The translations under genes were made by a program, and so were the position numbers. Under the pieces are notes generated by a model that was not told the origin of the DNA, did not search any database, and saw only the letters and a list, made by a program, of their open reading frames with translations. DNA of 43,808 bases from Candidatus Jordarchaeia archaeon (GTDB lineage: Archaea; Asgardarchaeota; Jordiarchaeia; Jordiarchaeales; Jordiarchaeaceae), in contig JAHQXB010000170.1 of assembly GCA_029856435.1 (NCBI GenBank), positions 1-43,808 of the forward strand, in the 5' to 3' direction. Positions 1 to 2,140 of this stretch are shown here, piece by piece (positions within the stretch are counted from its first letter, which is position 1; the number at the start of each line of letters is the position of its first letter).

Positions 1-33
1 GAGCCGGGTTAGTCTAGCGGCGAGGCGCCGGAC

Positions 34-49
34 AGTTCTTTGCCCGGAA
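34..49 (+). other. tRNA intron 1 (16 nt) at position 32/33
   Basis: BHB-like motif: central helix CCGG 28-31 with CCGG 44-47, 3-nt bulges AC|A (32-34) and AA|T (48-50). Removal restores the 7-nt anticodon loop CTGCAGA. Confidence 0.85.
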
Positions 50-63
50 TGCAGATTCGGTAT

Positions 64-92
64 TTCCGGCTTTACCTCAAGCTGGGGCCGAA
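64..92 (+). other. tRNA intron 2 (29 nt) at position 46/47 (variable region)
   Basis: Central helix CGGT 58-61 with GCCG 87-90, bulges AT|T (62-64) and AA|A (91-93), 8-bp intron hairpin 65-72/79-86. Removal gives a 5-nt variable loop TATAC. Confidence 0.85.
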
Positions 93-105
93 ACCAGGGT
101 TCAAA

Positions 106-136
106 ATCCTTGGAGGTTTCTCTCCAGTGAGGAACA
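106..136 (+). other. tRNA intron 3 (31 nt) at position 59/60 (T loop)
   Basis: The T stem forms the outer helix; central helix TTCA 100-103 with GGAA 131-134 (one A-G mismatch); bulges AA|A and CA|T; intron hairpin 107-116/121-130. Removal gives the T loop TTCAAAT. Confidence 0.85.
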
Positions 137-297
137 TCCCTGACCCGGCTTCACTTAAACCCTCAAAATAGTTAATGGAAACTAAAAAGCTCCAGAGGTA
201 GAAGCCTCAAGGATTCGTATGGAAAAGGGAAAGCGATAAATAATTATGCTGACCAATAAAAGTTTTAATGTGGTTGGCCCTCTCATAGTGGTATGTC

Positions 298-948
298 TTG
301 TACAATGGTAGTTTGGAGAGTGGGCTGTTGAATTTTGGGCGTGACGATGTTGTTAGAATTAGGAGTGCTCTTGACGCTTTGGTCTCTATTTTGTGTGTGG
401 TCAGGGCTTTTGCTCCGGAGTATAATTTTGATTCTGCTGCGGAGGAAAGTATTAGGAGGCTTCTGGAAACTGTACGGGACACCCTGAAGTTAACCATGGA
501 TAAAATTGGTTCGGGAAAGCTGGAGGGGGTGAAGAACACTGAGGTAAAGTCAGTTGATTTTTCGGGTGTTCTTTTTATTACTGTTTCTTCCTCTGCGCGG
601 AAGAGGCTTTTGGATTTGGGTGTTGATGCTAGGTTTGTGGTGGTGACTGGTGGGCCTCTGGATGTGGGTGATGTTAAGATTTTGAATCCGGGTATTTCTG
701 AGGGGGCTCTTGAAACTGTGAGGCGGAAGGTGGAGGGTGTTTGGCGGGAAATTGAGAGGAAGGCTCTAGGGGCGAGAAGGATTCTGATATTGGCTGAGGC
801 GGGTAATAGGGGGGATTTGATGGTTTCTGAGAGGGTGGGTGAAATCGAGAGGAGGACGGGTGTGAAGGCCTTTGTTAAGACTTTTTCCAGCCTCAGGGAT
901 TTGTCGCCTGAATTTTTTGAAGAGTTTTTGGGTGATGCTGGTGTTTGA
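298..948 (+). CDS. pscE: SepCysE-like (DUF2100) protein, partner of SepRS/SepCysS
   Basis: The C-terminal half (LFITVSSSARKRLLDLGVD..VVVTGGPLDVGDVKILNPGISEGALE..RRKVE) matches the DUF2100/SepCysE pattern. Its stop overlaps the pscS start. The TTG start is uncertain. Confidence 0.75.
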   Translation: MYNGSLESGLLNFGRDDVVRIRSALDALVSILCVVRAFAPEYNFDSAAEESIRRLLETVRDTLKLTMDKIGSGKLEGVKNTEVKSVDFSGVLFITVSSSARKRLLDLGVDARFVVVTGGPLDVGDVKILNPGISEGALETVRRKVEGVWREIERKALGARRILILAEAGNRGDLMVSERVGEIERRTGVKAFVKTFSSLRDLSPEFFEEFLGDAGV

Positions 949-2140
949 TGAAAGTGTTTTGGAGAAGTACAGGAATTTGGTTCGCGGCGTTGAGGAGGAC
1001 GCGATAAATCTTCATCCTATCCAGTCTGGGGGTAGGGCTGGTGATTATCCGGGGGTTGTTCAGGCTGTTTTGAGGTTTGTTGATGGTTATAGTGTGTGTG
1101 ATTTTTGTATGAAGGGTAGGTTGGATCTCATTGATTCTCCTCCCCTTTGTGATTTTCATAGGGATATTGCTGACTTTTTGGATATGGATGTGGCTAGGCT
1201 TTTTCCGGGTTGTCGCCAGGCTCAGTATGCTGCGTTTCATGCTTTGGTTAAATCTGAGGACACTATTATTATTGATTCATTGGCACATTATAGTACTTAT
1301 TTGAGTGCTGAGAGGGTGGGTGCAAGGATTGTTGAGGTGCCGCATTCAGGATATCCCGACTTTGACCTATTTCTTGACGCTTATGCAGAAAAGATTGAGG
1401 AGGTAAAAAAGGAGACGGGTAAGTGGCCGGCTTTGGCCTTTTTAACTCATGTTGATTACAATTATGGTAATGTTTTTGATGCAAAGAGTGTGGGCAAAAT
1501 TGTGCATGATTATGGAATTCCCTTTGTGTTAAATGGGGCGTATACTGTTGGGCGAATGCCAGTTTCTGGAAAGGAGTTGGGTGCAGATATTTTGACTGCT
1601 TCACTGCACAAATCTTTTGCTTCTCCGGCACCCTCGGGTCTTCTGCTGGCTAGCAGGGATTATGCAGAGGTTATCTTCAAAAGTTCTTCGATTAGGGGTC
1701 CTTGGAGTGGTAGAAGTTTTGAGAATAAAGAAGTTGAAACTTTAGGCTGCACTCTTCCCGGCTGTGTAGTTATAGGTGTTATGGCTGCTTTTCCATATGT
1801 TGCTGAACGCGTTAAACATTGGGACGAAGAAGTTAAAAAGGCAAGGTATTTCATAGAGCAATTAGAAAGGGTGGCAGGGATTAAACAGCTGGGGCAGCGT
1901 CCACATAACCATGACTTGGTGCACTTTGAAAGCGAACCATTTTTTGAGATAGCCCAGAAACATCCTCGGAAAGGATTCTTCCTTTATGAAGAATTAAGGG
2001 AAAGAGGAGTCGCCGGAGTTCAACCCGGCTTATCAAAGTTCTTCAAGGTTTCAACGTATGGAAAAACATGGAACCAGATTAAACTAGCGGCTGAGGCATT
2101 TCTAGATATTGCACGAAAGTATAGCATCCCAATACATTAA
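935..2140 (+). CDS. pscS: Sep-tRNA:Cys-tRNA synthase (SepCysS), PLP-dependent
   Basis: Motifs INLHPIQSGG, DGYSVCDFC (CxxC), AHYSTY, LNGAYTVGRMP, SLHKS (PLP Lys) and TLGCT. Start is placed at ATG 935 rather than 872 because of the overlap with pscE. Confidence 0.95.
   Translation: MLVFDESVLEKYRNLVRGVEEDAINLHPIQSGGRAGDYPGVVQAVLRFVDGYSVCDFCMKGRLDLIDSPPLCDFHRDIADFLDMDVARLFPGCRQAQYAAFHALVKSEDTIIIDSLAHYSTYLSAERVGARIVEVPHSGYPDFDLFLDAYAEKIEEVKKETGKWPALAFLTHVDYNYGNVFDAKSVGKIVHDYGIPFVLNGAYTVGRMPVSGKELGADILTASLHKSFASPAPSGLLLASRDYAEVIFKSSSIRGPWSGRSFENKEVETLGCTLPGCVVIGVMAAFPYVAERVKHWDEEVKKARYFIEQLERVAGIKQLGQRPHNHDLVHFESEPFFEIAQKHPRKGFFLYEELRERGVAGVQPGLSKFFKVSTYGKTWNQIKLAAEAFLDIARKYSIPIH

Follow-up and report, generated by a model that had tools for sequence, protein, structure and literature searches.

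Positions 3-150 of the window (the whole 43,808-nt stretch of DNA that we analyzed) are a genuine tRNA-Cys gene with three short introns at non-canonical positions. The host genome, G000, is a Jordarchaeia/Freyarchaeia (Asgard) MAG of 181 contigs and 3.54 Mb that is 97.8% complete. The tRNA gene lies directly upstream of sepCysE and sepCysS on the same strand. The features are listed below in window coordinates; a slash within the bulges marks the predicted splice site.

3-33, forward strand: exon 1, tRNA positions 1-32 (acceptor 5′ strand, D arm, anticodon stem 5′ strand, C32)
34-49, forward strand: intron 1, 16 nt, at 32/33, motif type HBh′, bulges A32 C33/A34 and A48 A49/T50
50-63, forward strand: exon 2, positions 33-46 (U33, anticodon GCA, G37, anticodon stem 3′ strand, start of the variable loop)
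64-92, forward strand: intron 2, 29 nt, at 46/47, motif type HBh′, bulges A62 T63/T64 and A91 A92/A93
93-105, forward strand: exon 3, positions 47-59 (A47, T stem 5′ strand, T loop TTCAAA to A59)
106-136, forward strand: intron 3, 31 nt, at 59/60, motif type hBH, with the 5-bp T stem as h
137-150, forward strand: exon 4, positions 60-73 (T stem 3′ strand, acceptor 3′ strand, discriminator U73)
298-948, forward strand: SepCysE-like DUF2100 protein (Pfam PF09873, E = 3.4e-17)
872-2140, forward strand: SepCysS, Sep-tRNA:Cys-tRNA synthase (TIGR02539, 463.6 bits against a cut-off of 365; PDB 3WKR_A, E = 8.5e-109)

Deleting the three introns leaves a 72-nt RNA that ARAGORN types as tRNA-Cys(GCA). 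In the ARAGORN fold, the product has an acceptor stem of 7 bp, a D stem of 4 bp, an anticodon stem of 5 bp, and a T stem of 5 bp; it has the fold of an archaeal tRNA-Cys with the anticodon GCA, and its cloverleaf score is 28/29. In archaea, the major identity elements of tRNA-Cys are U73 and G34 C35 A36, with G15 and A47 as minor elements and G37, A59, G1:C72, and G10:C25 as minor elements for SepRS (PMC2330236). The spliced product carries this full CysRS/SepRS set, and two of its members delimit exon 3, which begins with A47 and ends with A59. The inserts fall at tRNA positions 32/33, 46/47, and 59/60, and the canonical site at 37/38 is empty.

We then asked a solver for the best arrangement of the same stretch. 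The solver enumerates every BHB-like deletion, applies these in all combinations of one to four, and rates each product by its cloverleaf; to be a candidate, a deletion must allow the final six bases of the 5′ exon to form a 4-bp helix with the final six of the intron, and it must have at least one flanking helix. Its top solution for the window, found blind, was exactly 34-49, 64-92, and 106-136, with a score of 28/29. For comparison, 150 shuffles of the interior yielded a mean score of 20.1 (sd 1.4, maximum 23), even with the anticodon credited free. The ARAGORN call and the solver thus agree with a reading of this DNA made earlier from the letters alone (hereafter, the sequence-only reading), which had proposed a 72-nt tRNA-Cys(GCA) with three non-canonical introns and none at 37/38.

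The standard splice-site geometry consists of a central 4-bp helix, with each cut made two nucleotides 3′ of a helix strand and within a 3-nt bulge (PMC4090602). All three introns have a central helix (H) with 2 + 1 nt bulges at the predicted splice sites. In intron 1, H pairs 28-31 with 44-47 (CCGG/CCGG, 4/4 pairs), h′ is only 2 bp long (35-36/42-43), and h is absent. Intron 2 likewise lacks h; its central helix joins 58-61 to 87-90 (CGGT/GCCG, 4/4 pairs), and h′ extends up to 8 bp from 65/86. The central helix of intron 3 (100-103/131-134) has 3/4 pairs, with an A103.G131 mismatch, and is followed by a 2-bp h′ (107-108/129-130) and an inner hairpin (110-116/121-127). None of the three has both outer helices of the strict hBHBh′ motif, so the motifs are relaxed, being HBh′ for introns 1 and 2 and hBH for intron 3. 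The sequence-only reading had described correctly placed 3-nt bulges. The bulges are indeed at the sites, but the description was generous: in introns 1 and 2 the 3′ bulge has no closing exon-exon helix, and in intron 3 the mismatch adjoins the 5′ bulge. The same reading had noticed that intron 1 draws one strand of the anticodon stem (28-31) into its central helix and intron 2 the other (58-61), and this is borne out with four of four pairs in each helix.

Relaxed motifs are frequent by chance: the 148-nt stretch holds 54, against 35.5 in shuffles. They count as evidence here only because the junctions were fixed independently. At a junction fixed beforehand, the chance of a BHB-like motif is 0.4-0.7% per junction.

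An independent view of the junctions comes from another Asgard family (f16). In a phylum-wide search with the 5′-end pattern, most matches were other tRNA types, and f16 was the one other family to yield tRNA-Cys. A tRNA-Cys from this family has a strict hBHBh′ intron in the D loop, and the cleavage rule described above reproduces it. The spliced window product is colinear with uninterrupted stretches of f16 tRNA-Cys over all three junctions. Removal of 64-92 leaves a 5-nt variable loop, TATAC, that is identical in intron-free stretches of f16 tRNA-Cys.

These comparisons bear on the possibility that the gene is a real tRNA-Cys in which at least one splice site lies in another register, to which we assign only a very small probability. 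Cutting at 63-93 is favored by a central helix with 4/4 pairs and by an h′ of 9 bp, but it leaves a variable loop of 3 nt; the TATAC identity with f16 settles the register of intron 2 against it. For intron 3, cutting at 105-135 would leave the mature sequence unchanged in three species, but this is impossible in two others (G002 and G005), where 135-136 is TT, and the central helix is absent. A first intron at 29-43 still allows a solution scoring 26/29; its product, however, has A32 and loses the C32 found in all uninterrupted homologs. We therefore retain 34-49, 64-92, and 106-136 as the predicted introns.

In four congeners, the whole locus is present and is 88-94% identical. Relatives include the closed, published genome CP147778.1 ("Candidatus Freyarchaeota SRVP19_Freyarchaeia-1," 3,576,204 bp; G005), Candidatus Jordarchaeum madagascariense, and Jordarchaeia QZM_A3, and the named relatives correspond to four of the five other genomes of the genus. 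An exact-pattern scan across all genomes returned the congeners, chance bacterial matches, and a match in one "Bathyarchaeota" contig (L015), which holds no tRNA and was set aside as chance. In the five-species alignment, 2 of 72 exon columns vary, compared with 24 of 76 intron columns (Fisher P = 2e-6). Both exon changes fall in a single acceptor pair, 7:66, which goes from U:A to G:C and is thus compensatory across 140 nt.

Within the introns, the strands that form the three central helices are invariant in all five species, while drift, with 1-nt indels, is seen in the hairpin loops, at 135-136 in the bulge, and in parts of h′. In intron 1, the species differ at loop bases 36, 38, and 41 and by a 1-nt indel, but 42-49 is invariant; in intron 2, 86-92 is invariant. 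When RNAalifold was applied to four congeners, it found no pair changed on both sides, the sequences being too similar. The invariant part of intron 1 includes a second copy of CCGGA (44-48), which the sequence-only reading had taken as a potential decoy anticodon arm. The repeat is real and unchanged in five species, but it is a by-product of pairing, because the intron strand must complement CCGG, a palindrome.

The ortholog in CP147778.1 carries a fourth intron of 33 nt in the D loop, at 15/16, that is absent from the other four species (L005 1471-1503, about 1326654-1326686 in CP147778.1). Its central helix is GTCT/GGAT (4/4 pairs) with a 7-bp h′, and ARAGORN types the product of the four-intron model as tRNA-Cys. 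Searches for copies of the introns elsewhere (in G000, and in G005 for the D-loop intron) found only chance-level matches of 11-15 nt.

This ortholog is already present in a published table under another name. Supplementary Data 4 of Valentin-Alvarado et al. (2024, Nat Commun, PMC11291895) lists 1326639-1326821 in row 3 for Freyarchaeia as Ser AGA, with an Infernal score of 25.2 bits and with one intron according to tRNAscan or three according to R2DT; these coordinates are those of the G005 ortholog of the window's tRNA-Cys. We consider it extremely improbable that the locus is a tRNA-Ser(AGA) with one long intron, as that entry would have it. The entry itself speaks for a serine tRNA, but its Infernal score is very low, a long variable arm is absent, and the "AGA" lies within the 33-nt D-loop insert unique to G005. 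The insert is missing from G000, G002, G003, and G004, so the serine model cannot be built in the window at all, and in G005 the four-intron product is a tRNA-Cys by ARAGORN. The same table gives 38 tRNAs for that genome, and Cys, Phe, His, and Glu are missing from it. Typed as tRNA-Cys, the locus corrects the Ser(AGA) call and supplies the cysteine tRNA absent from the published Freyarchaeia set.

Could the gene instead be a decaying pseudogene full of insertions, with the functional tRNA-Cys elsewhere or unassembled? The genome is an incomplete MAG in 181 contigs (97.8% complete), the gene adjoins a contig end, and its motifs are relaxed. We nevertheless regard this as most improbable: constraint on the exons is strong and includes a compensatory change in the acceptor stem, in contrast to the drifting introns, the ortholog sits in a closed 3.58-Mb congener genome whose published table has no other tRNA-Cys, the synteny with sepCysE-sepCysS holds across two families, and no other tRNA-Cys-like sequence was found in the genome. 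An intron-less tRNA-Cys elsewhere, with the present copy unexpressed, was one of the findings that the sequence-only reading had named as refuting its own proposal, and neither an intron-less gene nor any second tRNA-Cys was found by blastn-short with the spliced sequence, by a scan for GCA anticodon arms, or by inspection of the RF00005 matches (9 inspected, none with a GCA anticodon), a search that is non-exhaustive for differently split genes in a genome of 181 contigs. Positions 3-150 are thus, with high probability, the sole detectable tRNA-Cys(GCA) gene of the host, with three protein-spliced introns predicted at 32/33, 46/47, and 59/60.

The flanks of the gene differ slightly among species. 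In the window and in G003, TCA follows the discriminator (window 150-153), and CCA is encoded in three species (GGCTCCA). A promoter is not visible in the host genome because the gene begins 2 nt from the contig end. Upstream of the orthologs (L002 1405-1440, L005 1355-1395) there is a conserved A/T-rich block, AAAAGTTGGTATAAATAAAAC, about 70-95 nt 5′ of the tRNA, and in L002 and L005 a TTAAAT-like box lies about 30-40 nt 5′ of it. The block and the box are possible promoter elements.

We extended the comparison to the sister family, in which the syntenic tRNA-Cys loci are L063-L066 (about 1280-1465; genomes G006-G009). A BLAST search of this family with the spliced tRNA matched tRNA-Leu rather than Cys, and the real orthologs were found through synteny with sepCysE. 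The gene has four introns in G006, G007, and G008 (16/17, 23/24, 37/38, and 59/60) and two in G009 (23/24 and 59/60). ARAGORN types the spliced products of all four genes as tRNA-Cys, and the cleavage rule also fits their introns. The only intron position common to this family and the window's genus is 59/60. In the sister family, the 59/60 intron is a strict hBHBh′ motif with the central helix TTCA/TGAA (4/4 pairs); the A103.G131 mismatch in the window is therefore a derived weakening. Across the order, seven intron positions occur at this one syntenic locus (15/16, 16/17, 23/24, 32/33, 37/38, 46/47, and 59/60). One shared position among so many indicates, judging from the sequences, fast intron turnover.

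The arrangement tRNA-Cys, sepCysE, sepCysS recurs in G003, G004, and G005, as well as in the sister family, and the cluster is conserved across the order. SepCysE is the scaffold of the tRNA-dependent cysteine pathway. The product of 298-948 also weakly resembles MJ1481, as found in the SepCysS complex (3WKR_C, E = 0.015), and the true start of sepCysS is probably near 947. Elsewhere in the genome, SepRS is encoded on contig C109 (525.7 bits) and CysRS on contig C5 (605.6 bits). Both the direct and the indirect route to Cys-tRNA are thus encoded, and charging of this tRNA with either Cys or Sep is predicted.

Relaxed motifs require a splicing endonuclease of broad specificity, as the sequence-only reading had pointed out. 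Two EndA paralogs are encoded in the genome, both with Pfam endonuclease domains. EndA alpha (192 aa, contig C104) has the Tyr-His-Lys triad, and its best PDB match is the catalytic subunit of Aeropyrum pernix (3P1Z_B, E = 3.2e-45), to which it aligns without gaps through the Crenarchaea-specific loop (CSL), including the conserved L1 loop lysine. EndA beta (197 aa, contig C64) has Thr in place of the catalytic His. The EndA type, a point raised by that reading, is accordingly (alpha-beta)2 with a catalytic alpha subunit. Enzymes of this type with an L1 loop have been associated with broad specificity and reported for Asgard archaea (Kaneta et al. 2018, PMC5829648). The host endonuclease, which has the L1/CSL loop, would be able to accept the relaxed motifs. 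RtcB is encoded as well, with a sole match at C93:302-1636 on the reverse strand of the contig that contains one in-frame TGA.

We infer that the precursor is expressed, cleaved, and ligated as follows. A 4-bp helix would bring together the end of each 5′ exon and the 3′ end of the intron that follows it, the (alpha-beta)2 endonuclease with its L1/Crenarchaea-specific loop would cut two nucleotides beyond each helix strand, and RtcB would ligate the exons. Since the helices of introns 1 and 2 each occupy one strand of the anticodon stem, this stem should form only once both introns have been removed, and the anticodon arm read by CysRS and SepRS should become available only then. The mature tRNA-Cys would be used both by CysRS, in the direct route, and by SepRS followed by SepCysE-SepCysS, in the indirect one. 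The sequence-only reading had gone further, holding that splicing must be ordered or mutually dependent. That does not follow: the two central helices use different strands and can coexist in the primary transcript, so that both introns can be presented at once and the geometry requires no order.

A bolder possibility, which we consider unlikely, is that the introns that sequester the anticodon stem act as a folding lock. Partly spliced intermediates would then be unchargeable, because they would lack the anticodon arm with its major identity elements for CysRS and SepRS, the invariant CCGGA would form a competing arm once intron 2 is gone, and, taken with the seven positions, the locus would record rapid, ongoing intron gain with functional consequences. 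If true, such gain would be taking place in the archaeal group nearest the eukaryotes. Thermodynamic folding does not predict even the mature cloverleaf (anticodon stem P = 0.01), and this same model gives probabilities of about 0.85 for the central helix of intron 2, about 0.1 for that of intron 1, and about 1e-4 for that of intron 3. With the same failing, it gives the decoy arm a probability of 8e-4, rising to 0.1 after intron 2 is removed.

The expectation that standard scanners would miss or mis-call the gene held. Nothing was returned at 3-150 by ARAGORN, whether or not introns were allowed, by Rfam at its gathering thresholds, or by RF00005 at E up to 0.01, and tRNAscan-SE had made the ortholog in G005 a Ser(AGA) at 25.2 bits. 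In the whole host genome, ARAGORN reports 2 tRNAs (4 with introns allowed) and RF00005 reports 9, seven of which are 92-119 nt long. Further hidden, heavily split tRNA genes are likely in this genome. The locus provides a comparative series of close relatives in which one syntenic tRNA gene has two, three, or four introns. This series should be useful for the study of archaeal tRNA intron gain and loss and as a benchmark for tRNA finders, which fail badly on this lineage. The exact predicted junctions can be checked against existing metatranscriptomes.

How much of this is new can be judged against what has been published. The sequence-only reading had suggested that a three-intron tRNA in this lineage would extend a phenomenon described mainly in Thermoproteales; this part falls, since a 2024 publication had already described pervasive multi-intron tRNAs, with as many as four introns, for Freyarchaeia/Jordarchaeia. 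In Freyarchaeia and Atabeyarchaeia, 92-95% of tRNA genes have introns, which are often non-canonical, and more than half of the genes have several, up to four per gene (PMC11291895). That system is the same as ours at the level of the genus, with the closed genome CP147778.1 and the orthologous multi-intron locus in its table. The kind of gene is thus already known in the same genus, and our results do not change the understanding of how such introns work. The present analysis differs in typing the ortholog as tRNA-Cys, with junctions, motif types, a fourth D-loop intron, and an order-wide comparison. What is new is at the level of annotation: the "Ser AGA" ortholog is a tRNA-Cys, it has a fourth intron in the D loop, and only the 59/60 position is common with the sister family.

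The neighborhood also has a precedent. Mukai et al. (2017, mBio, PMC5424206) likewise describe a tRNA-Cys gene that adjoins SepCysS, and they report full-length SepCysE in a selenocysteine-using Asgard lineage. Unlike in that work, the tRNA-Cys here is split by three to four introns, and introns are unmentioned in the text of that paper.

A close parallel outside Asgard archaea is provided by the multi-intron tRNAs of Thermoproteales, whose genes carry as many as three introns each, of the BHB, HBh′, or hBH type, at non-canonical sites that include 59/60 (PMC4090602). For example, the tRNA-Pro(UGG) gene of Pyrobaculum islandicum is interrupted at 25/26, 37/38, and 56/57, according to the same review. 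Thermoproteales also share with the window's host an (alpha-beta)2 endonuclease with a specificity loop. Intron transposition has been reported in Thermoproteales, whereas no sequence-similar copies of the introns were found in the host genome. The gene described here further differs from those of Thermoproteales in that it belongs to the Asgard phylum, lacks the canonical intron, and has introns at 32/33 and 46/47, two positions outside the list in PMC4090602.
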